Numbered from the stretch's first letter, positions 687-18,666 are shown. The stretch: DNA of 29,101 nt from Deltaproteobacteria bacterium (GCA_037382425.1 JARRPY010000067.1:1-29101); one strand, 5' to 3'. The notes: generated from the sequence alone by a model not told the origin. Made by a program: numbers and translations.

Positions 687-835
687 ATTTCATTTCGCGA
701 TAGGCATTGGTTGTCTTTATTTTCAACGGCGCTTCTGTTATTTTTTGGGAGAAACCTCCTCGTGGGCATCCTGGATATGGGCTTCAGGTTCTGAGCAAGG
801 CCCACGCAAGCCTCCTGGATAGGGAATGGTCCTGT

Positions 836-2068
836 ATGAATGAGACGGACGGCAAAAACGACGTGGCGGCCGAAGACCGGCTGATTCGGAAAATGGCCCT
901 CATGGCCTTTTTACTGAATCTGGCATTGGCCCTGGTCAAAGGCTATCTGGCCCGGCAATCTTCCAGCCTGGCCATCACCGCCGGGGCCATTGATTCGGCC
1001 ACGGACAGCATCGCCTCCCTGGCGGTGTTGGGCGGCCTCCTCACGTCCACCCGCAAAACGCGAACCTTTCCTCTCGGTTTGTACAAGATCGAGAATCTCA
1101 TATCCGTGGTCATTGCGCTCTTCATCTTCTTTGCCGGGTTTGAGATCGCGGCCCGGGTCCTCCAACCCCCTACGGAGCGCCCGGATATCCGCATGCCGCT
1201 GTTGTGGTGGATTCTGGGGTGCACCGCAGCCACCTTTTTCTTCGGCAAATACGCCCTGTACCTGGGCCGGAAGACCGAATCTCCGGCCCTTCTCGCCGAG
1301 GGCCGCCACCGGCAGGTGGACGTGCTCTCTTCCGTGGTGGTGCTGATATCCGTGTTGCTGAACTACTACCAGGTGGATTTACGATACGGCTTTCTGACCA
1401 TCGATCGGATGGCTGCCCTGCTGGTCCTCATCTTTATTGGTAAGGCCGGTTGGGAGTTGCTGTCCGACGGCATGCGCGTTCTGTTGGACGCCTCGGTGGA
1501 TTACGCCACTCTGGACCGGGCCCGAAAGATCATCGAAAAGGAGCCGGCGGTTAAGGAGGTCACCGCTTTGGTGGGAAGAAACGCCGGTCGATTCCGGTTT
1601 ATCAGCGCCGAGGTGACGCTGCGGATCCTCGATTTCAAAAAGGCCCATCAAGTAGCCGACCGCGTGGAAAAACAGATCCGGGAAGAAATCCCCCATGTGG
1701 AGCGAGTCAAACTGCGCTATGCGCCCACAGCGTCCAAGATCCGGCGGGTGGCCTTTCCCGTGTTGGCGGATGGAGAGACCATCAGTGACCATTTTGGAGA
1801 AGCGCCTCAATTTTTGATCTGTCAGATGGACACGGAGACTGGAGAGATCCAGAGGAAAGTGCTCCTCAAGAATCCGCACGGCAAAGAGAGTAAAGGAAAG
1901 GGGATCATGGCCGCACGGTTCCTGGTAAATCACAATATCGACATGCTGGGGGCCAGAAAAAAGATGGAGCAGAGCGGACCCGGTTATGTTTTTTCCGATG
2001 CCGGGGTCGAGACCTTCGAGGTCTCCGGAAATACCGCCACAGAGGCCCTGCAGGTGTTCATGTCATAA
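836..2068 (+). CDS. Cation diffusion facilitator (CDF) transporter with C-terminal NifB/NifX-type (FeMo-co binding fold) domain
   Basis: TM2 DSATD (DxxxD), TM5 HRQVD (HxxxD), FPLGLYKIE loop and cytosolic dimerisation domain, then RVAFP..ISDHFGEAPQF..NP..GKG typical of NifB/NifX domains. ATG 836 is preferred over the track start at 707. Confidence 0.88.
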   Translation: MNETDGKNDVAAEDRLIRKMALMAFLLNLALALVKGYLARQSSSLAITAGAIDSATDSIASLAVLGGLLTSTRKTRTFPLGLYKIENLISVVIALFIFFAGFEIAARVLQPPTERPDIRMPLLWWILGCTAATFFFGKYALYLGRKTESPALLAEGRHRQVDVLSSVVVLISVLLNYYQVDLRYGFLTIDRMAALLVLIFIGKAGWELLSDGMRVLLDASVDYATLDRARKIIEKEPAVKEVTALVGRNAGRFRFISAEVTLRILDFKKAHQVADRVEKQIREEIPHVERVKLRYAPTASKIRRVAFPVLADGETISDHFGEAPQFLICQMDTETGEIQRKVLLKNPHGKESKGKGIMAARFLVNHNIDMLGARKKMEQSGPGYVFSDAGVETFEVSGNTATEALQVFMS

Positions 2069-2177: not shown

Positions 2178-5100
2178 TTATGAAAGCGAGGCCAGTTCTT
2201 TCTCGTATTTTTCCACCCAGCCATCCGCACCGCATTCTCGATAAATACGAACCGATTCAGATAAAGCCGCTTTGACTGTCGATTGATCACCCATCCGTCT
2301 ATGAATTTTAGCGGACACGGCAAGATCTTGCGGCAGGTCATAAAAGTTTTTATTTTGACTATCGACGGCAATGGCCTCTTGAATCAATTTATCAGCCTTA
2401 CGCATGTCAGAATCGTTTAAATACAACATCACTTCAGCGACATATCTCCGCATTCGGCCCCCAAATAACATGATGTTATTTTTATCGGCATATGCAGAAA
2501 GTGAATCAAGATTGGGTATCTCCTCCTTATTAAACGCCATCACTCTGGCCAGGGCCAATTCGCATACCCGCATAAAGGAAGGGTAAAAATCATTAGATTT
2601 CAAAAGCCAAACCGCATTTGCCAAATGTTTCTTTGATTTCTTTATTTCCCCCAAGGAGAAATACGTGTCACCGAGCAGAAATTCAGCACCGCTCTGGATT
2701 AACAGAAACCCAATCCGGACGCTTAGATCACAGCTCATGATCAGATGTTTTGTGGCATCTTCCAGCTGCCTTTTGAGATAATACGCCATGCCCATGCTGA
2801 AATGCGCTTCCGCCTTTGAATAGGCATCTCCGCTCTCCTCAGCCTTTTGTAATCCATCGCAGCTCATGGGGTATCCCACGTTCACCTTTCCTTGATACAG
2901 GTGCACCGTTCGAGCGATGCAACTCGTTTGGGCGGCAATCCCCCAAAGCACATTTGCCATGGTACTTATCTCCAGGCTTCTGTTTAGATACGTTAGAGAT
3001 TTTTCAAACTCGCAATTATCCGCAAGAACGTGACCCATCCAGTGGCTCGCCATGACCAGGGAAATGGGATCGCCGGTTGCTTCAGCGAGTCGTATCGCAT
3101 CCTGTAATCTGTCTTTAGCGTTAGAAACATCTTCTTCAACGATGTACGTATGCACTCCCAGTATGGTATTGATCTGGCCGATCCTCCTCTTATGGTCATG
3201 TTTTGTAGCAAGCTCTATGACCGGCGCTACGGCTTCTTTCGAGAACTTAAACCCATTGACCTGAAGGTAGTAAAGCCCCAGGGTGGTCCGAGCATCGATA
3301 ATTTTCTTATCAAGATCTTCAGTGTGAGGCAGGTTTTCCAAAGAGCGAACCAGTTTCTCTCCGTAATCAATGGCGTCCTTCAAGGCGCCCACCTTCTGGG
3401 CTCTCTTGGCGGCAAGCTTGGCATACTCGGCAGCCTTGACATAATTCTTCGACGCCATAAAATGATCTGCCAGGGTTTCATAGTGGATATCCAGCCTGTC
3501 CCCATAGGTGTCTTCGATGGCGATGCCGACTTGATTATGTAGGTCTCGTTTTCTGCTGGTCAGTATTGAATCATTGACCACATCCCGGGTGAGTGCATGT
3601 TTGAAAGCATAAGTCACATGGGGGGCTACGCCTCTTTCTAGGAGGAGTTCAGCGTCCAGTAAAGCTGCGAGTGACTCAAGCAGTTCGTCTTCCTGGCAGC
3701 CTGAAACTCTTCGGATCAACTCCCCGCTGAATTCCCTTTCGATAACCGAAGCAATTTGGAGAACGTTTTTGGCTGTCTCGGGCAACGCATCGACCCTCGC
3801 CATGATGACGTCGTGAATAGTAGAGGGGATTTCCATGTGCAGGGCGTCTTTCGACAGGCAATATACTGCTCCGTCTCGTTCCAATATATTCAGGTTTTTG
3901 AAGGACTTCACGAATTCTTCCACAAAAAACGGGACGCCTTCTGTCTTTTCCAGAATCATCTCCTCAGCCGATGCATTCATCGCTTTTGACCCCAGCAGAT
4001 ACTTGGCGATTTGGATACTCTCCCGGTTTGGTAAGCGATTGAGCGTGATCTGGTTGTGATAGGACTTTATGGGCCAGGACGGCTGGTATTCCGGTCGATA
4101 CGTGAATATAAGAAGCACTCTTGATCCTGGTATGGAGGGCAAAAGGAACTTGAGGACATCCTCTGAACTTCGGTCTATCCAGTGGAGATCCTCTACTGTT
4201 AGCACAATCGGTCTGATCTGAGCGCCTCTTAAGACAATTTGCTTGAGTGCCTCAATGGTTTGCTCTCGCTTCCCTTCAGGACTCATCATGATTTTGTCAA
4301 CGCCGCTATCCTTAACCGACAACAGTCCCAGGATATACGGCAGGATGATGGATTCCTCGGCCCCGAGGTCCAGCAAACCGGACCGGACCTTCTCCTGGAT
4401 AGCGTCATCAACGTCTTCTTCATGTATGCCGAAGGCCGATTTCAGAAGATCTATAATAGGGTGGAAAGACAACCCCCTGCCATAGGAGACGCATTTCCCT
4501 TCCAGAAAGTTTACATTTTCATTGTTAACGGCCTTTCTAAACTCGTGCAAGAGTCGTGACTTGCCTAAACCCGCTTCGGCGACGATACTGAACGCCTGAC
4601 CGTGGCCCGATTTAACACGATTCAGGCCGTCAAGCAGAAGATCGAGTTCCCGCCGCCGGCCTACGAAGGGGCTAAGTCCACTCATCGCACTGACGTCGAA
4701 GCGCGTCTTTTGCGTACTGGGCGAAATGACGCGATAGATAGTGACAGGTTTTTCCATTCCTTTGATCTTTTCCTCTCCCATCGACTCAAAACTAAACAAG
4801 CCCTCCGTGAGTCTGAAGGTATCCTCCGTCACATAGGTACTGCCAGGATCGGCCAGTCCCTCCATCCGGGAAGCCAGATTCACCGTGTCGCCTACGGCTT
4901 TGAATTCCACCCTTAGATTGTTACCCAGGGTTCCTACGACCACGGGCCCGGAATGGATTCCGATTCTCATTTTAAGAGGGGATATCTCCTCTCGTTTCTG
5001 TCTAAGAGTTTCGTTGAAGACGGTCATTTCTTTGTGTATGGCGTGGGCCGATCGTATGGCCCGTTGAGGGGCATCCTCCAAGGCAATGGGTGCACCAAAA

Positions 5101-5549
5101 AGCGCCATAATCCCGTCGCCGGTCATCTCATTCACCGTGCCCTCGTAATCGTGGACTTTGTGGATGAGAAGTTCGTAGACCTTGTCCATGATGCCATAGG
5201 CTTCTTCTGCGCCGAGGCGCTCCACCAGAGGGGTGAATCCCTCCATATCGCAGAACATGACGGTGACCTGTTTGCGCTCTCCCTCGATCTTGTCTCGCTG
5301 GGAAAGGATCTTCTCGGTCAGGCCTTTGGGCAGATACCGTTGGATTTTGTCTAATTTTTCGTCAAAGGAAAGGTCTTTAGGGGCCGGCTCAGAAGGTGTG
5401 GCGAGATCATGGCCGCATTCACCACAAAATTTATCCCCTGGGAGGTTCTCAGACCCGCAATGGGAACAGAGCAAGACGAGTTTAGCGCCACATTCTCTAC
5501 AAAATTTGCGGGTCTCAGGGTTGTCAGTCTGGCATTTTTTGCATTTCAT
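2178..5549 (-). CDS. Double zinc ribbon - class III nucleotidyl cyclase - STAND AAA ATPase - TPR-like protein
   Basis: Four CxxC pairs (MKCKKC..FCREC..CSHC..FCGEC); cyclase motifs VMFCDMEGF, TGDGIMALFG, GDTVNLASR; Walker A AEAGLGKS; Walker B LTVEDLHWID; GVPFFVEE; FKHALTRD; helical repeat C-terminus. Start taken at MKCKKC. Confidence 0.92.
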   Translation of the reverse strand: MKCKKCQTDNPETRKFCRECGAKLVLLCSHCGSENLPGDKFCGECGHDLATPSEPAPKDLSFDEKLDKIQRYLPKGLTEKILSQRDKIEGERKQVTVMFCDMEGFTPLVERLGAEEAYGIMDKVYELLIHKVHDYEGTVNEMTGDGIMALFGAPIALEDAPQRAIRSAHAIHKEMTVFNETLRQKREEISPLKMRIGIHSGPVVVGTLGNNLRVEFKAVGDTVNLASRMEGLADPGSTYVTEDTFRLTEGLFSFESMGEEKIKGMEKPVTIYRVISPSTQKTRFDVSAMSGLSPFVGRRRELDLLLDGLNRVKSGHGQAFSIVAEAGLGKSRLLHEFRKAVNNENVNFLEGKCVSYGRGLSFHPIIDLLKSAFGIHEEDVDDAIQEKVRSGLLDLGAEESIILPYILGLLSVKDSGVDKIMMSPEGKREQTIEALKQIVLRGAQIRPIVLTVEDLHWIDRSSEDVLKFLLPSIPGSRVLLIFTYRPEYQPSWPIKSYHNQITLNRLPNRESIQIAKYLLGSKAMNASAEEMILEKTEGVPFFVEEFVKSFKNLNILERDGAVYCLSKDALHMEIPSTIHDVIMARVDALPETAKNVLQIASVIEREFSGELIRRVSGCQEDELLESLAALLDAELLLERGVAPHVTYAFKHALTRDVVNDSILTSRKRDLHNQVGIAIEDTYGDRLDIHYETLADHFMASKNYVKAAEYAKLAAKRAQKVGALKDAIDYGEKLVRSLENLPHTEDLDKKIIDARTTLGLYYLQVNGFKFSKEAVAPVIELATKHDHKRRIGQINTILGVHTYIVEEDVSNAKDRLQDAIRLAEATGDPISLVMASHWMGHVLADNCEFEKSLTYLNRSLEISTMANVLWGIAAQTSCIARTVHLYQGKVNVGYPMSCDGLQKAEESGDAYSKAEAHFSMGMAYYLKRQLEDATKHLIMSCDLSVRIGFLLIQSGAEFLLGDTYFSLGEIKKSKKHLANAVWLLKSNDFYPSFMRVCELALARVMAFNKEEIPNLDSLSAYADKNNIMLFGGRMRRYVAEVMLYLNDSDMRKADKLIQEAIAVDSQNKNFYDLPQDLAVSAKIHRRMGDQSTVKAALSESVRIYRECGADGWVEKYEKELASLS

Positions 5550-5566
5550 CTCTGTTGCCCCCACAC

Positions 5567-6846
5567 TCAGGATTTATTCCAGAGAACCTCATGGACATCC
5601 ATGGTTTCCTCAAATCCTTTGGGTATAAAACTTCCCGCCTTTAAAAACTCAAATGTCCCCCCGGAGACGATTTGCCTTGTCACATCAGATGTCAATATCC
5701 GCCCACCCGTAGCCTGAGAAAGCAATCGGGAGGCCATTACCACGGCACGGCCGAAGGGATGTCTGCCTTCGCGTCTGACCACTTCACCGGTGTGGACGCC
5801 AATGCGAACCCTTATGTCCGGCAACTCTTTTGAGATTTCTTTTTGAATATCCTGAGCGCACTTAATGGCGTTTGATGCCGTATCAAAGGACAGCATGAAC
5901 CCGTCACCCAGGTTCTGAAGTTCCCTACCTCTGTGTTTTTCGAGATGGGTCCTGATAATTGCATCATGCCTTAAAAAAATCTCTCTCGCCGCACGATCCC
6001 CAAGCCTGGTCACCAATTCTGTAGAAGATTCTATATCTGAAAACACGATGGTCGCTTGTTCAACTACATCTGAACCTTCATCAGATGAAACTTCCGTCGG
6101 CACATCCTGAGCAGCACCCCTTTCTCCAGCAATTCCTACCTGCAAAAATGTGTGAATCTCCTGAACGATTTCATCCGAATCACCATGCCAACACGGATGG
6201 ATGTCGCCTTTCAGGACCTTAAATAAGGCATCGGGAATTTCGCGTGCCAGCTTACGGCCGAGTTCAAGTTTATGTGCCTTATCCTCTTCTCGGTGAAGAA
6301 TAAGTGTTGGCGTCTTTATTTCGGACAGTTTATCGCTCACATCGAAGCCATAACCCATTTCCATCAATTTCGCAGCCATTTCGGGAGTAGTCGACTTTCG
6401 TTGAAGCTTTGCAAGGCTTTCAAGGTGTTCTTTATCTGCCTTTGGCACAAAAATTTCCGCCAAAGTACGAGAACCAATACCCCATGACGCCCTGACGAGG
6501 TTTGGTAAGGCCGACTGTACGTCTTCAGGTGCGACGTCTTTTCCCTTCGCGTACGTCCCGTATAAGACTAAACGGGACACCTTTTCAGGGTTCTCCGCAG
6601 TATAAGCAATGGCCACCGGGCCTGCCTGAGAACTGCCGAACAGACCGAATTTTTCGAGACCCAAGTAATGACAGTCACGCCTCTGGAAAGGCTTTCCCAG
6701 AATCGATTGGCGAAGCGATCTTCCAAACTGTACGACAGGCTGGTCACCCATGGCGGTGGACAAACTAAAGGAGGGCCTTGGCCGAATTGGGCATAGGCGA
6801 TCTTCACTCCGTCATTTCTCTTAACAAACTGGATCCCTGGTTGCAT
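5567..6846 (-). pseudogene. Alpha/beta hydrolase - class III cyclase fusion (LipJ/Rv1900c-like architecture), frameshifted by an apparent internal deletion near 6667-6670
   Basis: The N-terminus MQPGIQFVKRNDGVKIAYAQFGQGPPLV..SRGVTVI (GGAG RBS, ATG 6846) is in one frame. The rest (LGLEKFGLFGSSQAGP..HREED..GDIH..IVFSDIESST..GDGF..MASR) is in another. The usual RYDxxGxGxSD segment is absent. Confidence 0.8.
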
Positions 6847-8531: not shown

Positions 8532-9752
8532 TTAGATGTTGTAGGCGGTCTCTTCATGCTGCGTAATATCCAATCCACCCCGCTCCTCGCTCAAATCCAC
8601 ACGCAATCCAAACAGCTTGTCCACGATTTTCAACAAGATATAGCTGACCACAAAAGTGTATAAAATGGTCACCGCGATGGCAACAGACTGGATGCCCAGT
8701 TGGGCCGGATTGCCGAAAAAGAGACCGTCGGCCCCATCCGGGTTGACGGCCACGGTGGCAAAGAGCCCGGTGGCCAGGAGTCCCAAAACACCGCTGACGC
8801 CGTGGATACCCACCACATCGAGGCTGTCGTCATACCCGAAGCGACTCTTGGCCATGATCCCAAGATAGCAGAACACACCGGCCAGGACCCCGATGATGGC
8901 CGCTGAAATGGGCCCGACAAAACCGGCCGCCGGGGTCACGGTGGCCAGACCGGCGATGGCGCCGCTGGCCCCGCCCAGGGTGGTGGCTTTTCCCGTGTGC
9001 TTCCATTCCATGAAAATCCAGGCAAGGGCCCCGGTGGTCCCGGCCACATGGGTGGCCACGAAGGCGCTTCCGGCAAGGGCCCCGGCAGCCAGGGCGCTGC
9101 CCGCATTAAAGCCGAACCAGCCGAACCACAAGAGCCCGGCCCCGAGCAATGTCATGGGCAGGTTATGGGGACGCAATTCCTCTGTTCCGTAGCCTTCTCT
9201 TTTTCCCAGGAGAACGGCCGCGGCCAGTGCCGCCACTCCTGAGCTCAAATGGACGGCCACACCGCCCGCAAAGTCCAACGTGCCGAGACGTCCGAGCCAT
9301 CCGCCGTCCCCCCAGATCCAATGGGCCAGGGGGTTGTACACGAATGTGGCCCAAAGGAGACTGAACAATAAAAAAGGCCCGAATCGCATGCGCTCTGCAA
9401 AGGCGCCTGTAATGAGGGCCGGAGTGATGACCGCGAACATGCACTGGTAAATCATGAACACCTGATGGGGAATGGTGGGGGCATAGACGCTGTGGGGGTG
9501 CATGCCCACGCCTCTGAGACCGAACCATTCCAGGCCCCCGATGATGCCCCATTTATCCGGGCCGAAGGCCATGCTGTAGCCCCACAAAATCCACTCCAGG
9601 GTGATGAGTGCGATAATAATGAAACTCTGCATGATGGTGCCCAGAGCATTCTTGCTCCTCACCATGCCCGCATAGAACAGGGCCAGTCCGATGGTCATGA
9701 GCATGACCAGCGCCGCGCAGATCAACATAAAGGTGGTGTCTCCGGTGTCCAT
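8532..9752 (-). CDS. amtB: Ammonium transporter
   Basis: LALFYAG, FQ-type YQCMFAVIT, GAFAER, LDFAGGVAVH and DDSLDVVGIHG twin-His motifs, WFGWFGFNAGS. Confidence 0.97.
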   Translation of the reverse strand: MDTGDTTFMLICAALVMLMTIGLALFYAGMVRSKNALGTIMQSFIIIALITLEWILWGYSMAFGPDKWGIIGGLEWFGLRGVGMHPHSVYAPTIPHQVFMIYQCMFAVITPALITGAFAERMRFGPFLLFSLLWATFVYNPLAHWIWGDGGWLGRLGTLDFAGGVAVHLSSGVAALAAAVLLGKREGYGTEELRPHNLPMTLLGAGLLWFGWFGFNAGSALAAGALAGSAFVATHVAGTTGALAWIFMEWKHTGKATTLGGASGAIAGLATVTPAAGFVGPISAAIIGVLAGVFCYLGIMAKSRFGYDDSLDVVGIHGVSGVLGLLATGLFATVAVNPDGADGLFFGNPAQLGIQSVAIAVTILYTFVVSYILLKIVDKLFGLRVDLSEERGGLDITQHEETAYNI

Positions 9753-9815
9753 TTGTGCGCTCCCTCCTGTGCATTAAGTTTAAGATTCTCTCCCGCTCCT
9801 CATGTAAATTGGGAC

Positions 9816-9831
9816 AGCAAAAACTATACCT
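9816..9831 (-). promoter_or_regulatory. Candidate sigma54 (-24/-12) promoter for amtB-glnK
   Basis: Minus strand AGGTAT-AGTTT-TTGCT has exact GG-N10-GC spacing, about 65 nt upstream of the amtB ATG. Confidence 0.6.
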
Positions 9832-9975
9832 TATCAAATTGACATAATTTGAATGTATTCAGGCATGAAAATACATATTTGTAAAAAGGCAATAGGATAT
9901 TCGATCAGACAAAAATGTAATATAGGAGGCCCATATTCTACAGAACCGTATGATTTCATGATTTTGAAAAACGGA

Positions 9976-10005
9976 TTGACCTGAGAAGGCCAAACTGGGT
10001 AAACT
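9976..10005 (+). promoter_or_regulatory. Candidate sigma70 promoter for the methyltransferase operon
   Basis: TTGACC-N18-TAAACT. Confidence 0.3.
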
Positions 10006-10132
10006 TCACCATATGCAACCGATCTTGGAGCAAACGGCGATTTATGCATACCCAGGGTGATGGACCTATGGAATCGTTTGGATCTTCTTATCAACCCAAA
10101 GATGATCAATCGTCAGGAAGGAGCGGTATCAA

Positions 10133-12592
10133 ATGGCGGACGCAGCGCATATCCCACTCGGTGTGGGTTTTTATCCGGACTGGTTTTATGAGAACTACGG
10201 GATCTCCTTTGGGGAGGCATACTACTTTGACCCGGAAACGCGGGTGGAGACGCGGATGGAGATCGACCGGCGCCTGTACGAGCGGTTCGGTGATGTGGGA
10301 TTGGGCGCACCGGATCCCAAACCCAAGCCTTTGATCACCTTCGGCATGGTGATGCTGCCCGCCGTCTTCGGCTGCGAGATTGTCTACAAAGACGCGGCCC
10401 TGCCGTGGGCCATGCCCCTGAATCTCTCCGAGGACGAGGTCATGGCCTTGGAGGTGCCGGACATCTTCAACACCTATCCCATGACCGAGATGATCCGCCA
10501 GATCAATTACCTCAAAGAAAAATACGGAACGGTGGTGGGAGACATCAACACCACCGGCGTGCAGAACCTTGCGCTCAAGATCCGAGGAGATCAGCTCTAT
10601 TTTGATTTTTTCGAGAACCCTGATTTGTGTCATCATCTGCTGGATATCTGCACCCAGTGCGTGATCCAACTCTTTCAGTTCAACCATGAGACCACGGGCA
10701 CGGGGGCCGTGGATGTGACACCCATGTGCGACCCCACCTTGTACGTGATTCCCAACTGCACCGCAGAGCAGATTTCCAACGCCACCTATGAGAAATTCAT
10801 CCTCCCTTATGACAATCGGGTGGCCGATGCCTGTCATCCCTTGGGCATCCATCATTGCGGGTCCATCAATGAGGTCTTGCCCGGATATGCCAAAGTGCAT
10901 CATCTCAAATTCGTGGAGATCGGATTCGGTTCGGATGTGAAACGTGCCAGGGAGGTCTTTGGCCCGGATGTGGCGATAAACGCCCGGATCAACCCGGTCT
11001 TAATGAAGAACGGGACGGCAGATGAGGTGGCGGCGGAGGTCAGACGGTTGATCGACCAGGGGGACCCCCTTTACAAGTTCTCCATCGATACGGTGGGATT
11101 GACCCACGGCACACCAGACGAAAACGTGAGGGCCGCCCGAATGACGGCCGCGGAATACGGCAAAATCGACGGCGGGCGGAAACCGGTTCGAGCCAAGGCG
11201 GTCCAGGCCGAGGCGCTCCGCCAGGTGGAGGCCGGTGCCCAGGTATTGGATGTGAATGTGGGGGTATCGGGCATTGATGAACCCAAGATGCTGAAGGCGG
11301 CGGTAGCGGCCGTACAGGCGGTGACGGACGTGCCCTTGTGCATCGATTCGGCCGTGCCGGAAGCCCTGGCCGCGGCCCTGTCCGTGTACGAGGGAAAGGC
11401 CCTGGTCAACTCGGTCAACGGGGAGGCGGCCAAACTGGATCGGGTGTTGCCGCTGGTCAAGGAACATGGAGCGGCCGTCATCGGTCTGACCATGGATGAT
11501 GAGGGGATTCCCGCGGGGGCGGAAAAGCGTGTGGAGATTGCCGAGACCATCATCGGTCGGGCCCTCGAGATCGGCATTCCCCGGGAGGACGTCATCATCG
11601 ATCCCCTGGCCATGGCCATCAGTGCGGAATCGCGTGCGGGAGTAGAGACCCTTCGGGCACTGCAGATGATTCGAGACGCGCTGGGCGTTAATCAGACATT
11701 GGGTTTGAGCAACATTTCTTTCGGGCTGCCCGGTCGGCATCAAGTCAACGGGGCCTTTCTTGCCATGGCCGTTCAAAACTGGCTCACCTGTCCCATCCTC
11801 GACCCCACGGTGTGGGAGATGCGGCTGGCGGTTCTGATTTCGGATATGCTCCTGGGAAGGGACGAATTCTGCATGAACTACATCCGGGCCGCCTCAAAAG
11901 GCACGGAAGGGGATGCAGGAAGAGGTTCGGCGCCTGAACCGGCAGAAACCGGGGAGGGGGGATACGAGGCCCTCAAGGAAGCGGTGATTTCAGGCCGGCG
12001 AAAGAAAGCCGTGGACCTGACCCGAAAGGCCTTAGCAGCGGGAATGGACCCCCAGGACATTATCAATACCTATTTGATCCCGGGTCTCAATATGGTGGGA
12101 GAGCGGTTTGAGAGAAAGGAGATTTTCGTCCCGGAAATGATGATTTCGGCCAAGACCATGCAGGCGTGCGTGGATGAGCTCACCCCCGTGTTGAAGCAAC
12201 AATCGGGCAGGTCCCTGGGCACGGTGGTGATCGGGACGGTCTTCGGGGATCTTCACGATATCGGCAAGAACCTCACACGGCTTCTGCTGGAGACCTCGGG
12301 ATTCAAAGTGGTGGATCTGGGAGAGAACGTGCCGGCAGAGACTTTTCTGGAGCAGGCCAAGGCGGCGCACGCGGATGTGGTGGGATTGTCTTCGCTATTG
12401 ACCACGGGCGACCCGCATGTGGAGGAAACGGTCAAGGCGCTTAAGGAGAGCGAGATCGGGGATCAAATCAAGATCATCTGCGGCGGGGCCGCCATGACAC
12501 CGAGATTTGTACTGGAGGTCTGCGGTGCGGACGCCCACGCGGAAAATGCGGCGGACGGGGTCAGCAAGATCAAGGCGTTTTTGAGCCTGTAA
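10133..12592 (+). CDS. Fusion of URO-D/MtaA-type methyltransferase, pterin-binding (methyl-THF:corrinoid methyltransferase), B12 cap and B12-binding domains
   Basis: aa ~1-345 are URO-D-like (GDINTTG, IHHCG, TPDENV). aa ~356-590 are MeTr/AcsE-like (LDVN, IDS, VNS, IDPL, GLSNISFGLPGR). The cap domain (LIPGLNMVGERF..FVPEM) is followed by the B12 motif DLHDIG..SSL..GGA. Confidence 0.88.
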   Translation: MADAAHIPLGVGFYPDWFYENYGISFGEAYYFDPETRVETRMEIDRRLYERFGDVGLGAPDPKPKPLITFGMVMLPAVFGCEIVYKDAALPWAMPLNLSEDEVMALEVPDIFNTYPMTEMIRQINYLKEKYGTVVGDINTTGVQNLALKIRGDQLYFDFFENPDLCHHLLDICTQCVIQLFQFNHETTGTGAVDVTPMCDPTLYVIPNCTAEQISNATYEKFILPYDNRVADACHPLGIHHCGSINEVLPGYAKVHHLKFVEIGFGSDVKRAREVFGPDVAINARINPVLMKNGTADEVAAEVRRLIDQGDPLYKFSIDTVGLTHGTPDENVRAARMTAAEYGKIDGGRKPVRAKAVQAEALRQVEAGAQVLDVNVGVSGIDEPKMLKAAVAAVQAVTDVPLCIDSAVPEALAAALSVYEGKALVNSVNGEAAKLDRVLPLVKEHGAAVIGLTMDDEGIPAGAEKRVEIAETIIGRALEIGIPREDVIIDPLAMAISAESRAGVETLRALQMIRDALGVNQTLGLSNISFGLPGRHQVNGAFLAMAVQNWLTCPILDPTVWEMRLAVLISDMLLGRDEFCMNYIRAASKGTEGDAGRGSAPEPAETGEGGYEALKEAVISGRRKKAVDLTRKALAAGMDPQDIINTYLIPGLNMVGERFERKEIFVPEMMISAKTMQACVDELTPVLKQQSGRSLGTVVIGTVFGDLHDIGKNLTRLLLETSGFKVVDLGENVPAETFLEQAKAAHADVVGLSSLLTTGDPHVEETVKALKESEIGDQIKIICGGAAMTPRFVLEVCGADAHAENAADGVSKIKAFLSL

Positions 12593-12600
12593 TCGCGGGA

Positions 12601-14454
12601 ATGGCAAAGATACTCTTCATCCCCGCGCACAAAAAGACCGTGGCCGACGGTCGCCGGAGCATCCTGGAACTGGCCCAGGAAAATGGAATCGGCATCCGGT
12701 CCACCTGCGGCGGAAAGCAGCGGTGCGGGGAGTGCCGGATCGTGATTGAGGCGTCGAGGGCCCCGGTCCCCGAACCTTCTTCCTACGAACGGGAGGTGTT
12801 GGGGCGCGATATTGAGAAAGGATACCGGCTGGCCTGTGAAGTCGTTCTGTGTAACGACGCGACCGTCCGCATCCCAAAAGAGAGCCTCCCCGAACGCCAG
12901 GTGATACTGACCGCCGCCACACAGCATGACTATCCTGCCGCCGTTCGTTGCAACTTGACCCCCCATACTGTCACGGTCCCGCCGCCTGCGCTCCCGCAGG
13001 TGACGGCGGACCGGGAGCGACTCTTGGAGGCATTGGAAACGACCCATGGACTGAAGGGCCTTCACATGGATTCGGCCTTGTTGCAACGACTCCCCCACCT
13101 TCTTCGTCAGGAACAAGGCGCCATGGGCGTGGTGGTTCGGAACTCAGGTGAAATCATTGATGTGTGTCCGAATGCCTGTGAATCGGTGACGGGCATCGCC
13201 TTTGACCTGGGCACCACCACGGTGGTGGCCTATCTGATGGATATGAAAAATGCTCGCGACATGGCCGTGGCCTCTGCCATGAATCCCCAGATTCCCTTCG
13301 GGGATGATGTGATCTCCCGGATCGCCTTGTGCGGCGGAAGATCCGACGGGCTCAATACACTACGCACAAAGATGATGGCGTGTCTCAATGGGCTTGTGGA
13401 AGCCACCTGCCGGCAGGCGGGTATCGAGCCGCAACAGATCATGGAAGCGACCATGGTGGGCAACAGCGCCATGCATCATATCTCCATGGGGATCGACCCC
13501 ACGCCGCTTGCCACGGCCCCGTACACTCCGGCACTTCAGGCGGGCCAGGACATCAAGGCCCGGGATCTGGGCCTCAACATCGGGCCGTCTTCCTATGTCC
13601 ATTTTCTCCCCATCAAGGCGGGGTTCGTGGGAAGCGATACGGTGGCCGGCGTACTGGCCACCCGTATGCATAGGCACAAGATCCAAACCCTCCTCATCGA
13701 CCTGGGCACCAATGGCGAGATTGTTATGGGGAATAGGGAGGCGATGACCTGTTGCTCAACTGCTGCAGGCCCTGCCTTTGAAGGGGGACACATCCGCTTT
13801 GGTATGCGCGCGGCTCCCGGGGCGGTGGAGCGCGTGTTCATGGATCCCGCCTCCTGGGATGTCCGTGTGGATACCGTTGACGGGGCGCGCGCCTGCGGAT
13901 TGTGCGGTTCAGGCATCATTTCCGCGGTGGCGGAAATGATCAGGACCGGTCTATTGCTGGAAAAAGGCGATTTCAATCCGGATGTGACGTCGACTCGGTT
14001 GCGACACGGGACTGACGGACTCGAGTTCGTATTGGTTTGGGGGAGTGAGTCCGGTTTGGGCGGGGACCTGGTCATTACCCGCCGGGACATCTCGGAGCTC
14101 CAGATGGCCAAAGCCGCGGTATACGCAGGGATCATGGTGCTTCTTCAGTTGTCGGGAGAGCCGGACATTAAACGGGTACTTTTGGCCGGCGCCGGCGGGA
14201 GCCGGTTGGATCCTAAAGATGCCCGGATCATCGGCCTTCTCCCCTCTGAGCTGGATGCGGATGCCGTGGCCGTGGGAAACGCCGCGGTTCACGGCGCGTG
14301 CCTGGCCCTTCTGGACGTCCGGAAGCGCAGAGAGGCGGAACGAATTGCCCGGAAGATGCGCTATCAGGAACTGGCCTCCCACGGTGCGTTTCAGGATCTG
14401 TTCGTGTCCGGCATGCGCTTTCAAAATGCCGTCGATGCAGAAGATAGCTTTTGA
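12601..14454 (+). CDS. ASKHA-domain ATP-dependent reductive activator of corrinoid proteins (RACo/DUF4445 type) with N-terminal 2Fe-2S ferredoxin
   Basis: STCGGKQRCGEC..RLAC; AFDLGTTT; NPQIPFGDDVISR; GFVGSD; DLGTNGE; AAGPAFEG; GLCGSG; LAGAGG. Confidence 0.93.
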   Translation: MAKILFIPAHKKTVADGRRSILELAQENGIGIRSTCGGKQRCGECRIVIEASRAPVPEPSSYEREVLGRDIEKGYRLACEVVLCNDATVRIPKESLPERQVILTAATQHDYPAAVRCNLTPHTVTVPPPALPQVTADRERLLEALETTHGLKGLHMDSALLQRLPHLLRQEQGAMGVVVRNSGEIIDVCPNACESVTGIAFDLGTTTVVAYLMDMKNARDMAVASAMNPQIPFGDDVISRIALCGGRSDGLNTLRTKMMACLNGLVEATCRQAGIEPQQIMEATMVGNSAMHHISMGIDPTPLATAPYTPALQAGQDIKARDLGLNIGPSSYVHFLPIKAGFVGSDTVAGVLATRMHRHKIQTLLIDLGTNGEIVMGNREAMTCCSTAAGPAFEGGHIRFGMRAAPGAVERVFMDPASWDVRVDTVDGARACGLCGSGIISAVAEMIRTGLLLEKGDFNPDVTSTRLRHGTDGLEFVLVWGSESGLGGDLVITRRDISELQMAKAAVYAGIMVLLQLSGEPDIKRVLLAGAGGSRLDPKDARIIGLLPSELDADAVAVGNAAVHGACLALLDVRKRREAERIARKMRYQELASHGAFQDLFVSGMRFQNAVDAEDSF

Positions 14455-14460
14455 TTGCCT

Positions 14461-14874
14461 ATGGATGAGGGGCAGGGCCATGATGTCATGACAGTGCGGC
14501 AGGCCTTCCTCATCGGATATGCGCTTTGTGAGAATGAAGTGGTGGGCACGTCCACCCATAAAGCCCCCAAGCCGGACTATCGCAGAAAGATTGAAACCGC
14601 CACCGGTCTGGATCTGGACGGGTTTCTGGAACGGGGGTATACGGCTGTTCGGGCGGATTTCAGGGGAAGAGGAATTGGCGGCAGGCTGATCCGGGGGTTG
14701 ATTGAAAACTCCCCGGGCCTGCGTATTTACGTGACCATCCGCATGGACAATACGCACGCCCTCAAAATGACCTATAGGGAACAGATGATCCACGCCGCCA
14801 CCTTTATCAATGACCGTACGGGTCATGAACTGGGGGTGTTCACCAATGTCCGGCCGGGATGGATCAATCGCTGA
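14461..14874 (+). CDS. GNAT-fold acetyltransferase domain protein, start uncertain, possibly N-terminally truncated
   Basis: Motif A: ERGYTAVRADFRGRGIGGRLI; N-x-x-A segment (DNTHALK). No clear RBS. Confidence 0.65.
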   Translation: MDEGQGHDVMTVRQAFLIGYALCENEVVGTSTHKAPKPDYRRKIETATGLDLDGFLERGYTAVRADFRGRGIGGRLIRGLIENSPGLRIYVTIRMDNTHALKMTYREQMIHAATFINDRTGHELGVFTNVRPGWINR

Positions 14875-14931
14875 TGGGAAGTTAAAGGCGAACAAACAGA
14901 AAGAATCTGCCGTAAGAAAAGGGGGAGACCG

Positions 14932-15435
14932 ATGAAAAAGTGCGTTTTAATGTGGATCGCCGTCATCATATCGGTATGGGTTTTGAGCGGATGCGCGTCC
15001 CAGTTTTCTCAAGCCAATGTGATCGCTCAAGAAGGCCGCTTTGTTGCGTACAATGATGGAACGGTTTTGGACAAGGATCGGGGTCTGATGTGGGCGGCCC
15101 GAGACAACGGTGCACCCATCACCTGGGAGGAGGCCAAAGGCTACTGCGGCAACTTCAAGGCCGGAGGATACACGGACTGGCGTATGCCCACCCAGGATGA
15201 GCTGACCGATCTGTACGACGCCCGGGTGACCAACACGACCCCGCCGGCCGACGGCTGCAAGGGCGGGTGCCACCTCACCAATTTCATCCATCTTTCCTGT
15301 TGCCCCGTGTGGTACTGGAACGGTATCGATGAAGTGCCGGGGTTTTTTCATTTCGCCGTAGGCCCCAAGGACTGGCGAGATCAATCCCTTGAAACCTACT
15401 CTCCTCGGGCGCTCCCCGTGCGGCAATACAGATAA
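14932..15435 (+). CDS. DUF1566 (Lcl C-terminal domain) lipoprotein
   Basis: Lipobox LSGC; RF..NDGTVLD..GLMW..TWEEAKGYC..GGYTDWRMPTQDEL; GGGGGAG RBS. Confidence 0.85.
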   Translation: MKKCVLMWIAVIISVWVLSGCASQFSQANVIAQEGRFVAYNDGTVLDKDRGLMWAARDNGAPITWEEAKGYCGNFKAGGYTDWRMPTQDELTDLYDARVTNTTPPADGCKGGCHLTNFIHLSCCPVWYWNGIDEVPGFFHFAVGPKDWRDQSLETYSPRALPVRQYR

Positions 15436-15509: not shown

Positions 15510-16439
15510 ATGGAAATGAAACCCGTTGAAATCATGCAGGGCCTCTATTTTATTGAAAGGGGCTATCTCAACGCCAATCACTTTGTCTATCCTTTCGAAC
15601 ACCCGGTTCTTATTGACACGGGGTACAGCGCTGACTTTGATTTAACCGCACAGTTGATAAGAGAGACGGGCGCAACGCTTGAGCAGACGCGGCTGATTAT
15701 CAACACCCATGTTCATTGCGATCACATGGGCGGCAATAAGCCTATTCAAGATAAATCCGGATGCGATATTGTCCTTCATTCTATCGGTAAATATTTTGTG
15801 GATACCAAGGATGACTGGTCCACCTGGTACCGGTATTTCGACCAAGAGGCGGATTTCTTTCACTGCACCATGGGGGTGGGTGGCGGCGATGTGATTCCGG
15901 TGGGCCCGCACGAATTTCAGGTGATTCACACGCCCGGTCATGCAGCGGATGGGATGGCCCTGTACCATCCCGGGCAAAAGGTCCTCATATCCGGTGACGC
16001 ACTCTGGGAAGGCGATTTGCCGACCATTACCATGCGGGTGGAAGGAAGCACTTGTCTGTTTGATCTATTGGAATCCCTTGAGAAGCTGGAAGCCCTTGAT
16101 GTGGATGTGGTCTATCCCGGACACGGTCCCCCGTTTTCAGATGTAAAGTCGGCCATCGCCAAGAGCAGGGCCAAAGCCGAAGATTTCCTGAACCACCGGG
16201 AAAAAACAGGCGCCGCCCTCCTTAAGAAGATTTTGATATATACGCTTCTTATGAAAAGGACGGTGGATGAAGAGACCTTTTTCGATTACCTGATGGGAAC
16301 CCATTGGTTTAGGGAAACCATTGATCTTTTCTTTGACGGGGCCTATGAGCAGAAGTATGAGGAGATGATGACCGATTTCATTAGCCGTGGGATTGTGAAA
16401 CTAAGGAGCGGCAAATTGTTTAGCACGGTCAAGGCCTAA
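15510..16439 (+). CDS. MBL-fold metallo-hydrolase
   Basis: LIDTG, THVHCDHMGG (HxHxDH), HTPGH, ISGD, YPGHG. Start is 15510 or 15516. Confidence 0.9.
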   Translation: MEMKPVEIMQGLYFIERGYLNANHFVYPFEHPVLIDTGYSADFDLTAQLIRETGATLEQTRLIINTHVHCDHMGGNKPIQDKSGCDIVLHSIGKYFVDTKDDWSTWYRYFDQEADFFHCTMGVGGGDVIPVGPHEFQVIHTPGHAADGMALYHPGQKVLISGDALWEGDLPTITMRVEGSTCLFDLLESLEKLEALDVDVVYPGHGPPFSDVKSAIAKSRAKAEDFLNHREKTGAALLKKILIYTLLMKRTVDEETFFDYLMGTHWFRETIDLFFDGAYEQKYEEMMTDFISRGIVKLRSGKLFSTVKA

Positions 16440-17883
16440 GCCCATCCACCCCGCACAGGTTCAGGGCGCAGGACCTGGCGGATGCCAGATCGGCCAACCG
16501 GGTGATCATGATCTTTTGAGCCTGGGGTGACCCTGCGCCGTGAATGGACTCCGTCAGATAAGACACGGCACCGGTGCCGAGCACGATGTTTTCGATCAAA
16601 CGGAGGATCCGCATCCGCTGATCGCTGCTTACACCGCTTTTTCCCCCCATGTATTTTTGAATGTACGCCCCGATCTCCGGGTGGTTCTGATCATGGACAG
16701 AGGGCATGGTGACCAGGATGCCTCCGGCCAGATCCTGGGCCAGTCTGGATATCTCAAATGGGAACCGGGTGATGTTGAGTTTGCACACATTGGCCAATAG
16801 CTGATCCACCGAAAAGGACCCGCTCGGTGTCTTTGCACCCATGGCCGCGCTGGCCAGCGCCACCCCGTGAAGCGTCTCGTTTAAATGGATCATCTCGGCC
16901 ACTTTGTCTTTGAAGTGCGAAGACTTTTCCGTACCCTGTGCCTCTCCGACGGCCTGTGTCGCCCCGATCAACACATCGCCCACGCCCACCTTGCAACCGC
17001 CGTAGCTGGTTCGATGGTTGGCCGCAAAAAGCTCCACCAGCCGCCCGGCAAAGGGATATTCCCCCTTCATGAAAATCCGCTCTTCAGGAACGAATACATC
17101 ATCGAACACCACCAGGGCCTCACACCCGCCGAAATGGGGATTTCCCACATCGGAACGCCCCGTTTCCAGTCGCCGCGTGTCCGACGGCTGCCGTCCGTAG
17201 ACGAAGGTGACGCCCTTGGTGTCGGCGGGCACCGCAAAGGCGATGGCATAATTCTTGTCTTCGGGTCTCAAGGTTCGGGTGGGCATGACCAGCAGCTCGT
17301 GGGAATTCACCCCGCCCGTGATGTGCAGCTTGGCCCCTCTCACCTTCACACCGCCTTGGGCATCCGCCACCACATGAAGGTATTGATCCGTGTCCGCCTG
17401 TTGGGAAGGGGAGAGGCTCCGGTCCCCTTTGCTGTCCGTCATGCAGGCAGCGGGAACCAGATCATTTTGTTGAATATGTTTCAGGAATTCTTTGAATCTC
17501 TCGTGATAAGGGGTTTTGTATTCCCGATCGATATCATAGGTGATGGCATAGACCGCGTTAATGGCATCCATGCCGGCACATCTTTGAAAGCAGCAGGCGG
17601 TCTTGCGGCCCATCTCCCGAAGCATCACGACCTTGTCGATGATGTCCTGGGTGCTGTGCTGAATATGGGCGAATCGATTGATCCTATCACCGGTCAGGTG
17701 GGATTCGGCTGTAAACAGATCGGGGGCCTCTTGGGCCTGTTCATAGGTTTCGGCCATGGCCATGGCCCCGGGACGTGAAATGGGGTGATCCGGCACGCTC
17801 GGCACCGCTTCCCCCTGAATAAACACCCGATGCGCCAGATCCCTCAGACTCGATACATACGCTTCCTTGGTCATGAGTGGCAT
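16429..17883 (-). CDS. abfD: 4-hydroxybutyryl-CoA dehydratase / vinylacetyl-CoA isomerase
   Basis: CFQRCAGMD (CxxxC), MTDSKGDRS, GGCEAL, HRTSYGGCK (His and Cys Fe-S ligands, Tyr), ESIHGAGSPQAQ. GGAG RBS lies before ATG 17883. Confidence 0.88.
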   Translation of the reverse strand: MPLMTKEAYVSSLRDLAHRVFIQGEAVPSVPDHPISRPGAMAMAETYEQAQEAPDLFTAESHLTGDRINRFAHIQHSTQDIIDKVVMLREMGRKTACCFQRCAGMDAINAVYAITYDIDREYKTPYHERFKEFLKHIQQNDLVPAACMTDSKGDRSLSPSQQADTDQYLHVVADAQGGVKVRGAKLHITGGVNSHELLVMPTRTLRPEDKNYAIAFAVPADTKGVTFVYGRQPSDTRRLETGRSDVGNPHFGGCEALVVFDDVFVPEERIFMKGEYPFAGRLVELFAANHRTSYGGCKVGVGDVLIGATQAVGEAQGTEKSSHFKDKVAEMIHLNETLHGVALASAAMGAKTPSGSFSVDQLLANVCKLNITRFPFEISRLAQDLAGGILVTMPSVHDQNHPEIGAYIQKYMGGKSGVSSDQRMRILRLIENIVLGTGAVSYLTESIHGAGSPQAQKIMITRLADLASARSCALNLCGVDGLRP

Positions 17884-17994
17884 AACCTGCTCCATTAGTT
17901 ATTGATGGTGGCCATGTAAACGCTATCGAAGTCAGTTGATCATATTGCAGAAATGCACAAAAAGGCAAGGATAGAAATTTTGATCAATTTTTTC

Positions 17995-18023
17995 TTGACA
18001 CACAGGGCTCGGGGATATAGATT
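17995..18023 (+). promoter_or_regulatory. Sigma70 promoter of tetR
   Basis: TTGACA-N17-TAGATT. Confidence 0.7.
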
Positions 18024-18024
18024 C

Positions 18025-18042
18025 GGAGTGAATGATCACTCC
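18025..18042. promoter_or_regulatory. Palindromic operator 1 (GGAGTGA-ATGA-TCACTCC)
   Basis: Perfect 7-bp arms immediately downstream of the -10 box. A second copy lies at 18727. Confidence 0.75.
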
Positions 18043-18063
18043 TATTTCAGGAAAGGTGCCCGA

Positions 18064-18666
18064 ATGGCTGGAGGAAAACAACACTCGGATATACGGCGTG
18101 CCATTATCGAGGCCGCCCTGGATCTCATCGCCGAAAATGGATTTCATGGAACCCCGACCTCGAAAATCGCTCAAAAGGCCGGGGTGGGTATGGGAAGCAT
18201 TTACCGGTATTTCAAGGATAAGGAAGACTTGATTCATCACGTGTTTCAGCATGTGGTGGAGGAATCCAGTCGTAGGGTGCTCTCGGACCGCGATCTGGAT
18301 GCGCCCATCCGGGAACAATACCTAAAACTCGCGTTCAATACTTTCTATTTTTTGATTAACAACCCGAAAATACGAGCCTTTAATGAACAATACTTTAATT
18401 CCCCCTTCGGTATCTCGCGCAAGCGGGACATGTTGCTCATGGACAGGACCCAGGATGAACCCGGAAGTGCGACGTTTGCTCACGATCTGCTTCAATCGGC
18501 TCGTGATCAACAGATTGTCAAGGATTTGCCCCTGGGGATTTTGCTGGCACTGACCTTTGCGCCCATCGTCTTCATCGCGCGGGATGTTTGTACCGGGGTG
18601 TTGAAAGTCGATGAGGACACGGTTCAAAGGACGATTGAGGCCTGCTGGGATGCAGTAAAACGATAG
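18064..18666 (+). CDS. TetR/AcrR family transcriptional regulator
   Basis: AIIEAALDLIAENGFHGTPTSKIAQKAGVGMGSIYRYFKDKEDL helix-turn-helix. AGGAAAGG RBS before ATG 18064. Confidence 0.93.
   Translation: MAGGKQHSDIRRAIIEAALDLIAENGFHGTPTSKIAQKAGVGMGSIYRYFKDKEDLIHHVFQHVVEESSRRVLSDRDLDAPIREQYLKLAFNTFYFLINNPKIRAFNEQYFNSPFGISRKRDMLLMDRTQDEPGSATFAHDLLQSARDQQIVKDLPLGILLALTFAPIVFIARDVCTGVLKVDEDTVQRTIEACWDAVKR

Follow-up and report, generated by a model that had tools for sequence, protein, structure and literature searches.

Genes at the locus

The stretch of DNA analysed here, hereafter the window, comprises 29,101 nucleotides from a Deltaproteobacteria bacterium (GCA_037382425.1, JARRPY010000067.1:1-29101). 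Between 10133 and 14454 it carries two adjacent genes, one for a fused corrinoid methyltransferase and one for an activator of the RACo type. Together they represent a genuine, widespread and so far uncharacterised architecture: a substrate:cob(I)alamin methyltransferase (MT I) module, here putative, a methyl-tetrahydrofolate (methyl-THF):corrinoid methyltransferase (MT II) module and a corrinoid protein in a single chain, accompanied by RACo. The features are these:

10133..12592, plus strand: fused corrinoid methyltransferase gene, an open reading frame of 819 residues (relatives about 876) with four Pfam domains
10133..11167, plus strand: URO-D-like (beta/alpha)8 barrel, residues 1-345 (PF01208), putative MT I module
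10757-10759 (C209), 10850-10852 (H240), 10856-10858 (C242) and 10916-10918 (E262), plus strand: candidate metal or active-site residues, from conservation and model
11168..11902, plus strand: pterin-binding (MT II) barrel (PF00809) without its N-terminal hairpin, strand 1 and helix 1
11194..11195, plus strand: junction of a 165-nucleotide (55-residue) in-frame deletion relative to all relatives, from alignments, DNA and contigs
11966..12181, plus strand: B12-binding cap, a four-helix bundle (PF02607 B12-binding_2, residues 612-683, 83.9 bits)
12221..12556, plus strand: Rossmann-type B12-binding domain (PF02310, residues 697-808, 78 bits), with a DxHxxG motif at 12248-12265
12601..14454, plus strand: RACo-type ATP-dependent reductive activator of corrinoid enzymes, 617 residues, four Pfam domains

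The ATG of the fused gene is preceded by a GGAGG-type ribosome site. All Pfam matches of both frames exceed the curated cut-offs. URO-D is matched over residues 68-340 (68 bits, cut-off 23.9; profile positions 70-344 of 346) and Pterin_bind over residues 345-549 (96.8 bits, cut-off 25.5), the latter match beginning at profile position 12. The middle module also passes the NCBIfam model PRK07535 for MeTr/AcsE-like methyl-THF:corrinoid methyltransferases (265.9 bits against 259, residues 354-590). The C-terminal part has the cap, the Rossmann domain and the DxHxxG...SxL...GG residues of base-off/His-on cobalamin binding: the signature D706-L-H-D-I-G711 (D706, H708, G711), S753/L755 and G784/G785 are present and invariant in an alignment of six sequences. 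A preliminary description of this DNA had read the order URO-D, pterin-binding, B12 cap, B12-binding within one 819-residue frame, and both Pfam and NCBIfam bear this out.

The TAA stop of the fused gene (12590-12592) is followed by 8 nucleotides and then by the ATG of the activator at 12601, as had also been described. The activator carries Fer2 (PF00111, a 2Fe-2S domain), RACo_linker (PF17650), Raco_middle (PF17651) and RACo_C_ter (PF14574, ASKHA), all over the cut-off, and fails the equivalog model for AcsV, the activator of CoFeSP (NF040756, 441 bits against 800). Base composition across both genes is unremarkable, and a promoter and terminator scan of 9700-15000 gave signals no higher than in shuffled sequence. 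RACo is present in 49 of the 60 related loci with enough downstream DNA; at the locus of strain NaphS2 (protein P0032) none occurs within 8 kb. In split systems the URO-D-like gene is separate from the pterin/B12 gene or genes directly downstream; the RACo homologues of two such systems (L018, 11538-13169, 544 residues; L023, 4739-6292, 518 residues) are without the N-terminal 2Fe-2S ferredoxin domain and are transcribed together with an enoyl-CoA hydratase.

By profile and by fold alike, the N-terminal domain is a member of the URO-D superfamily. An AF2 model gives a URO-D-type barrel (pLDDT 82.4, pTM 0.85), for which Foldseek finds as its best match MtaA of Methanosarcina mazei (4ay8/4ay7, E 2.8e-11, TM 0.67), then uroporphyrinogen decarboxylases (UROD) and, weakly, MetE barrels (E 2.6e-4). 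Family cut-offs for MtaA/CmuA are not reached (TIGR01463, 62 against 235.4 bits; PRK06252, 68 against 244; MtbA, 53 against 600). C209, H240, C242 and E262 end the neighbouring model strands 204-209, 237-242 and 258-263 on their C-terminal side, the usual position of the active site in barrel enzymes. Among 56 relatives of 23-72% identity, C209 is kept in all 56, H240 in 54, C242 in 49 and N208 in 46; at position 262, 30 have E and 18 have D. Position 319 is not conserved in the alignment (S in 19, D in 5, C in 5).

Zinc sites of the Cys/His type occur in MtaA, in MetE and in certain MT I enzymes of O-demethylases, that of MtaA consisting of His-x-Cys plus a later Cys. The His-x-Cys of H240/C242 at a barrel-strand end may recall this motif. 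A Cys/His/Cys site would fit activation of an ether oxygen as well as of a thioether or thiolate sulfur, and does not discriminate between the two.

Spread and origin of the fusion

The fusion is no isolated case: 765 matches came from a search through 5.8 billion protein clusters, and each of the 120 best, which are those listed, carries PF01208, PF00809, PF02607 and PF02310. Lengths among the matches listed are 838-920 residues, mostly about 876, except for the window's own 819. Automatic labels of these homologues include 'dihydropteroate synthase', 'pterin binding enzyme' and 'corrinoid protein MtbC1/uroporphyrinogen decarboxylase'. In another library, clustered at 50% identity, a single representative of 877 residues stands for every fused form, because of which we regard them as one tight clade within a broader, unnamed branch of the URO-D superfamily. 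The other 123 matches in that library at E 1e-30 or better, among the matches listed, are mostly stand-alone proteins of about 340-380 residues or fragments shorter than these, apart from one row of 442 residues and one of 724.

A relative is encoded in 115 GTDB species-representative genomes. Among the best 80 of these 115 species-level loci, 46 are fused (including L028, counted as such with a frame of 894 residues), another 32 are split, and contig ends interrupt the remaining 2. Nearly all of the 80 come from metagenome bins (Desulfobacteraceae, Desulfatiglandales, Candidatus Desulfacyla, Desulfobacula, Desulfotignum and Desulfarculaceae), the sole isolate being strain NaphS2. The 115 genomes belong mostly to sulfate-reducing Thermodesulfobacteriota. 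Within the window's own order, the orthologue occurs in 32 of 124 genomes with completeness of at least 90%. It is an open frame of 860-909 residues in 21, a stand-alone gene of 357-405 residues in 5 and in pieces in 3. The remaining three are the window's own genome (an 828-residue frame holding the 819-residue one), G034, where a short contig holds a frame of 712 residues, and G020, whose copy runs off the end of its contig.

Some members depart from the common form. In G074 (contig C14) and G075 (contig C16), both of which have a PF02574 gene, the orthologue is broken up into at least three pieces whose frames differ, one with an in-frame TGA, and these copies look like real pseudogenes. 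Locus L042 has an open frame of 1083 residues, protein P0158 is 724 residues long with two URO-D-like stretches, and loci L065 and L066 have frames of 651 and 617 residues that possibly join the URO-D-like and pterin modules without B12. Full-text literature, with most subscription journals and supplements outside its scope, yielded no paper characterising this architecture and no description of a natural three-module fusion.

The origin of the family is most simply read as a single fusion of adjacent genes, with a small number of later splits, or of frameshifts due to sequencing. We derive this operon-fusion origin from a quick maximum-likelihood tree of the URO-D-like part (82 rows, with L064, L093 and L098 left out as short or broken), because split operons of the same gene order branch first and the fused forms are derived. 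The earliest branches are the split locus L061 and a clade (support 100) whose 20 rows are all split, and all 46 fused rows lie inside a derived clade of 53 rows. The tree was rooted on four distant stand-alone relatives whose branches are long, so that the root is insecure. The fewest changes between fused and split states is 4, of which at least 3 are forced by the starred branches, against a mean of 24.4 with shuffled labels. Split loci L023 and L024, with RACo adjoining, have the order URO-D-like gene, Pterin_bind gene, corrinoid protein gene, which is the domain order of the fusion.

The pterin-cap-B12 part is clearly MetH-like as judged from alignment: residues 381-856 of P0002, the nearest relative of the window protein, are collinear with the Fol-Cap-Cob modules of Thermus MetH (9cbp, E 5e-65). 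The preliminary description had gone further and proposed a MetH chassis whose homocysteine-binding domain was replaced by a URO-D barrel. The tree does not support this, since split operons branch first and the fused clade is derived.

Deletion in the window copy

The window protein is without 55 residues that its relatives have. In an alignment with five relatives the gap falls between residues 354 and 355, at 11194|11195. P0002 (874 residues, 8 member sequences) otherwise differs from the window protein only at positions 59, 315 and 550, and the missing stretch corresponds to its residues 355-409, a linker plus the motif PLV-IGERINPTGRK. Nine other sequences, split forms among them, keep this motif almost unchanged (I45-T52 nearly invariant), whereas the window lacks it; in alignment the missing stretch corresponds to the beginning of the folate domain of MetH. 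The preliminary description had announced an important caveat, and it is a real one: the window copy is without the first strand and helix of the folate barrel that every relative has.

In an AlphaFold model of the intact domain from a sister orthologue (pLDDT 83.1), the deleted part comprises a beta hairpin (24-28/33-37), barrel strand 1 (45-49), a helix (55-62) and about the first residue of helix 66-78; block-mean pLDDT is 85-93 over residues 21-50, which hold the hairpin and strand 1, and 66 over 51-60. As far as alignment and model tell, the pterin barrel of the window is not a complete eight-stranded one, being without the first strand, which bears the IGERINPTG motif. The window copy probably cannot carry out the tetrahydrofolate (THF) half-reaction and is probably a defective allele.

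We consider it likely that the deletion is real and private to this strain. An assembly artefact, in an organism that in fact carries an intact 874-residue gene like P0002 and a working system, is the less probable account, although it draws on several observations. The deleted protein is a cluster of one sequence from one contig, and the bin that represents the genome is fragmented (484 contigs, 86.3% complete, 5.2% contamination). Public contigs (not raw reads) of four runs from four studies were compared over 10700-11700, with patchy cover; none bridges 11194, a result that does not decide for or against the junction. In X22 and X2, the contigs that agree with the window rightward of 11194 have 148 and 116 nucleotides of different sequence ahead of that point, which encode the end of the missing segment, and one X2 contig matching up to 11194 continues into the start of that segment. 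The undeleted form, at 99% identity or more, thus exists in at least two other samples, and the junction has been seen so far only in the window. The preliminary description had looked to reads across 11150-11210 to secure the fusion: no contig spans 11194, but contigs in two runs show the longer form, and this form is still fused.

Counter to an artefact, the two sides of the junction share at most 1 nucleotide and no repeat flanks it, so that a graph assembler had no reason to jump; because nothing at the junction would make it do so, we judge a real deletion likelier than an assembly error. The loss is also exactly in frame. K315 (N in the others) and W550 (G in the others) are replacements private to the window at sites where the other aligned members agree, and their presence on the same contig fits a diverged allele. 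Finally, 6 sites in 1 kb separate X22 from the window, which marks it as another strain.

Elsewhere in the genus, G055 and G057 have no copy. G056 (L019/L093) has the segment and shows a frameshift in the URO-D-like part, where one G is lost from a run of four at about 8450 of L093 (compare 10583-10592 of the window). This is a long-read assembly, and the frameshift may be a sequencing error rather than the mark of a pseudogene, which weakens the idea that the locus is decaying throughout the genus.

Substrate, alternatives and known systems

Gene neighbourhoods in relatives point to a substrate class. By Pfam annotation of 11 relative loci, an enoyl-CoA hydratase (ECH_1, about 260 residues) is present in 9 and a CoA-activating enzyme, be it an AMP-forming ligase, a CoA transferase or an ADP-forming synthetase, in 7. 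A BLAST survey of neighbours covered the 35 of 80 loci with at least 5 kb on each side (16 fused, 19 split). RACo is a neighbour in 11/16 fused and 16/19 split loci, an enoyl-CoA hydratase in 12/16 and 9/19, the orthologous acyl-CoA ligase in 10/16 and 3/19, and any CoA-activating enzyme in 13/16 and 8/19; 2/16 and 10/19 have neither hydratase nor CoA-activating enzyme. The hydratase lies 34-141 nucleotides upstream of the methyltransferase on the same strand in seven loci (L034, L035, L037, L073, L065, L066 and L099), a spacing that suggests one operon.

Given this linkage in relatives to an enoyl-CoA hydratase and to an enzyme of CoA activation, we favour a methylated carboxylic acid as the substrate, and the most likely function is its catabolic demethylation to methyl-THF. 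Candidate substrates are methoxylated aromatic or phenylpropanoid acids and compounds of the methylmercaptopropionate/dimethylsulfoniopropionate type, the latter suggested by analogy with the DmdB ligase and DmdD hydratase.

We therefore propose, with a probability of about 0.6, that the pair is a natural single-chain multi-component corrinoid system (MT I, MT II and corrinoid protein) with RACo, that its substrate is likely a methylated acid, that it arose by gene fusion and that the window copy is defective. In a working member of the family, the URO-D-like barrel would move a methyl group from an O- or S-methylated substrate to Co(I) of the C-terminal His-on B12 domain, probably by means of a Cys209/His240/Cys242(/Glu262) metal site. 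The B12 domain would then swing to the middle pterin barrel, where the methyl group would pass to THF, and the methyl-THF formed would enter the Wood-Ljungdahl pathway encoded in the organism's own genome, which has 8 matches to MTHFR and 1 to the acetyl-CoA synthase CdhC. RACo, with ATP and its 2Fe-2S cluster, would re-reduce Co(II) formed by accidental oxidation. The preliminary description's idea of a one-chain shuttle between a methyl donor and THF is supported.

Several points weigh against this proposal. The substrate class is read from gene linkage only, and the linkage is missing in the window, in the same-genus locus L019 and in the 10 split loci mentioned above. The window's own genome has orthologues of the ligase (77% identity) and hydratase (59%), but on another contig (C68, L026, 6917-11808), where they are divergent from an MFS transporter and a carbon-nitrogen hydrolase. 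Both enzymes belong to generic families: the ligase falls just under the cut-off of PRK06187, with 4-coumarate/feruloyl-CoA ligases as its best PDB matches, and the hydratase under that of PRK08139, with human ECHDC3 among its best. The URO-D-like domain is, by sequence comparison, remote from every characterised methyltransferase. A phmmer search of it against the PDB gave only chance matches to sulfite oxidase (E 0.04); a family profile found only the chloromethane methyltransferase CdmB (E 5.6e-4) and UROD, and a broader profile of 56 relatives found UROD (8.7e-7) and CdmB (5.9e-3) and did not match MtaA. The candidate Cys/His/Cys(+carboxylate) metal site is proposed from conservation and secondary-structure position. 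We infer the direction of methyl flow, from donor to THF, and a barrel without its first strand seems unlikely to fold or bind folate normally.

Another candidate donor is a volatile small molecule that bears a methyl group and no carboxylate, namely methanethiol, dimethylsulfide or a methyl halide; in that case the ligase and hydratase would belong to a separate pathway or to an upstream one that releases it. This is improbable in our judgement. It would accommodate the unlinked ligase and hydratase of the window's own genome and the split loci that have neither gene nearby, and thiolate chemistry would go well with a Cys/His/Cys site; among solved folds, the closest is that of a thiol methyltransferase, MtaA. 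The only characterised methyltransferase matched by sequence in the PDB is the chloromethane enzyme CdmB (PMC13222342). That match is marginal, however, in both profiles, and CdmB is zinc-independent with an aromatic, metal-free cavity (PMC13222342), unlike the conserved Cys/His/Cys set here. The close spacing of hydratase and methyltransferase in seven loci, with the single operon that it suggests, also argues against this reading.

It is less probable still that the family represents a further, third type of methionine synthase dependent on cobalamin, with a zinc barrel of the URO-D/MetE clan standing in for the homocysteine domain and RACo for reactivation by S-adenosylmethionine. Such an enzyme would fill part of a gap, as PF02574 and PF01717 were not found in the window's genome, and in the order PF01717 occurs in 0/124 and PF02574 in 31/124 genomes. 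The Fol-Cap-Cob part is closer to Thermus MetH (223 bits) than to MeTr (2yci, 156 bits), Foldseek matches MetE weakly (E 2.6e-4), a Cys/His/Cys(+Glu/Asp) set is conserved, and RamA/DUF4445 proteins reactivate MetH variants (PMC5764234). Yet the orthologue is present in only 32/124 genomes and 67/124 have neither it nor PF02574, so that the gap is general and is not filled by this family; G014, G076 and G105 have both. The window's genus holds no intact copy (the deletion in the window's genome, G000; the frameshift in G056; none in G055 and G057). The neighbours are CoA ligase and enoyl-CoA hydratase genes and not methionine genes, and the window has no S-adenosylmethionine or cobalamin riboswitch, nor a match to any other Rfam family (0 matches across its whole length). 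By phyletic pattern the methionine-synthase idea is not supported, since lack of MetH and MetE is general in the order. A separate observation is that standard families leave methionine synthesis unexplained in most sulfate reducers of this order.

A natural one-chain demethylase heading an undescribed anaerobic pathway for a methylated organic acid is thus the more likely novelty when set against a methionine synthase. Corrinoid methyltransferase systems open lignin methoxy groups, methylated sulfur compounds and methyl halides to anaerobic carbon cycling, and the linkage to CoA ligase and hydratase genes means that this family may mark an undescribed demethylation pathway in sediments. If our proposal is true, a chain holding a donor barrel, a folate barrel and B12 would be a compact model of a B12 domain visiting two active sites, and a natural fusion would be a ready biocatalyst scaffold, comparable fusions having already been engineered. 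The window copy, probably inactive or misassembled, is ill-suited for expression; an intact orthologue, such as that of NaphS2, is the one to study.

The window's own neighbours of the pair are uninformative as to function: amtB-glnK (on the other strand), a GNAT protein, a lipoprotein, a metallo-beta-lactamase-fold protein and an HpaB-like protein with a TetR regulator. The HpaB-family protein (4-hydroxyphenylacetate hydroxylase / 4-hydroxybutyryl-CoA dehydratase family; 16429-17895, minus strand) adjoins the TetR gene (17953-18666, plus strand), and an HpaB-family gene also lies at 4177-5622 of the same-genus locus L019, near the RACo gene there. No remnant of the Succ_CoA_lig gene that sister loci have between amtB and the fusion was found in the window. 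Farther upstream are a CDF cation-efflux transporter with a zinc-transporter dimerisation domain and a fused C-terminal Nitro_FeMo-Co (dinitrogenase iron-molybdenum cofactor-type) domain (707-2068, plus strand), a protein of 1128 residues with double zinc ribbons, an adenylate/guanylate cyclase, an AAA_16 ATPase and MalT-like TPR (2178-5564, minus strand), and an alpha/beta-hydrolase fused to a cyclase domain (5567-6763, minus strand).

Among known systems, MtaA (4ay7/4ay8) shares the fold of the N-terminal domain and differs from it in sequence (18% identity), in the invariant C209 on the preceding strand and in position 319, which is not conserved here. Methanosarcina MtsD/F/H are reportedly fused corrinoid/methyl-transfer proteins. 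Like these and like CmuA, the present family joins a URO-D-type methyltransferase and a B12 domain in one chain; unlike it, they are without a pterin module, and the second transfer is made by another protein or by the same barrel. CmuA joins MT I and the corrinoid protein (PMC13222342). An artificial cobalamin methyltransferase fusion has been engineered for aryl methyl ether demethylation (PMC9930637); it is man-made, whereas the family here is natural. The mlp clusters exclude loci with THF methylases by definition (PMC10418091), and the Skagerrak preprint makes no mention of such fusions.

Split MetH with a RamA-like activator in Phaeobacter and Desulfovibrio (PMC5764234) and the bidirectional MtgBCD system of marine bacteria, with its MetH link (PMC12478193), resemble our family in that pterin barrel, corrinoid protein and RamA/DUF4445 activator are modules that can be reused with different donor or acceptor barrels. 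In those systems the barrels are of the PF02574 or MttB family and the proteins are separate; here the barrel is URO-D-like and fused. Three-component systems, such as the O-demethylases Odm/Vdm/Mtv/Mto and the chloromethane system CdmBCA, encode a URO-D-fold MT I, a corrinoid protein, a pterin MT II and an activator together (PMC13222342), and the basal relatives of the fused family are ordinary split operons. The fused members differ from them in having MT I, MT II and corrinoid protein in one polypeptide, with an MT I-like domain that forms a separate, uncharacterised clade.

The likeness to MetH lies in the chain itself, which unites a donor or acceptor barrel, a pterin barrel, a cap and a B12 domain with a His-on DxHxxG motif. 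The match to the MetH equivalog TIGR02082 (260 bits against a cut-off of 1010.85) places residues 361-797 on profile positions 374-833, that is, on the pterin, cap and B12 modules. Unlike MetH, the fused protein has neither a PF02574 homocysteine domain nor a C-terminal S-adenosylmethionine activation domain, its chain ending after the B12 domain; its activator is RACo, and its origin, according to the tree, is by fusion of an operon.

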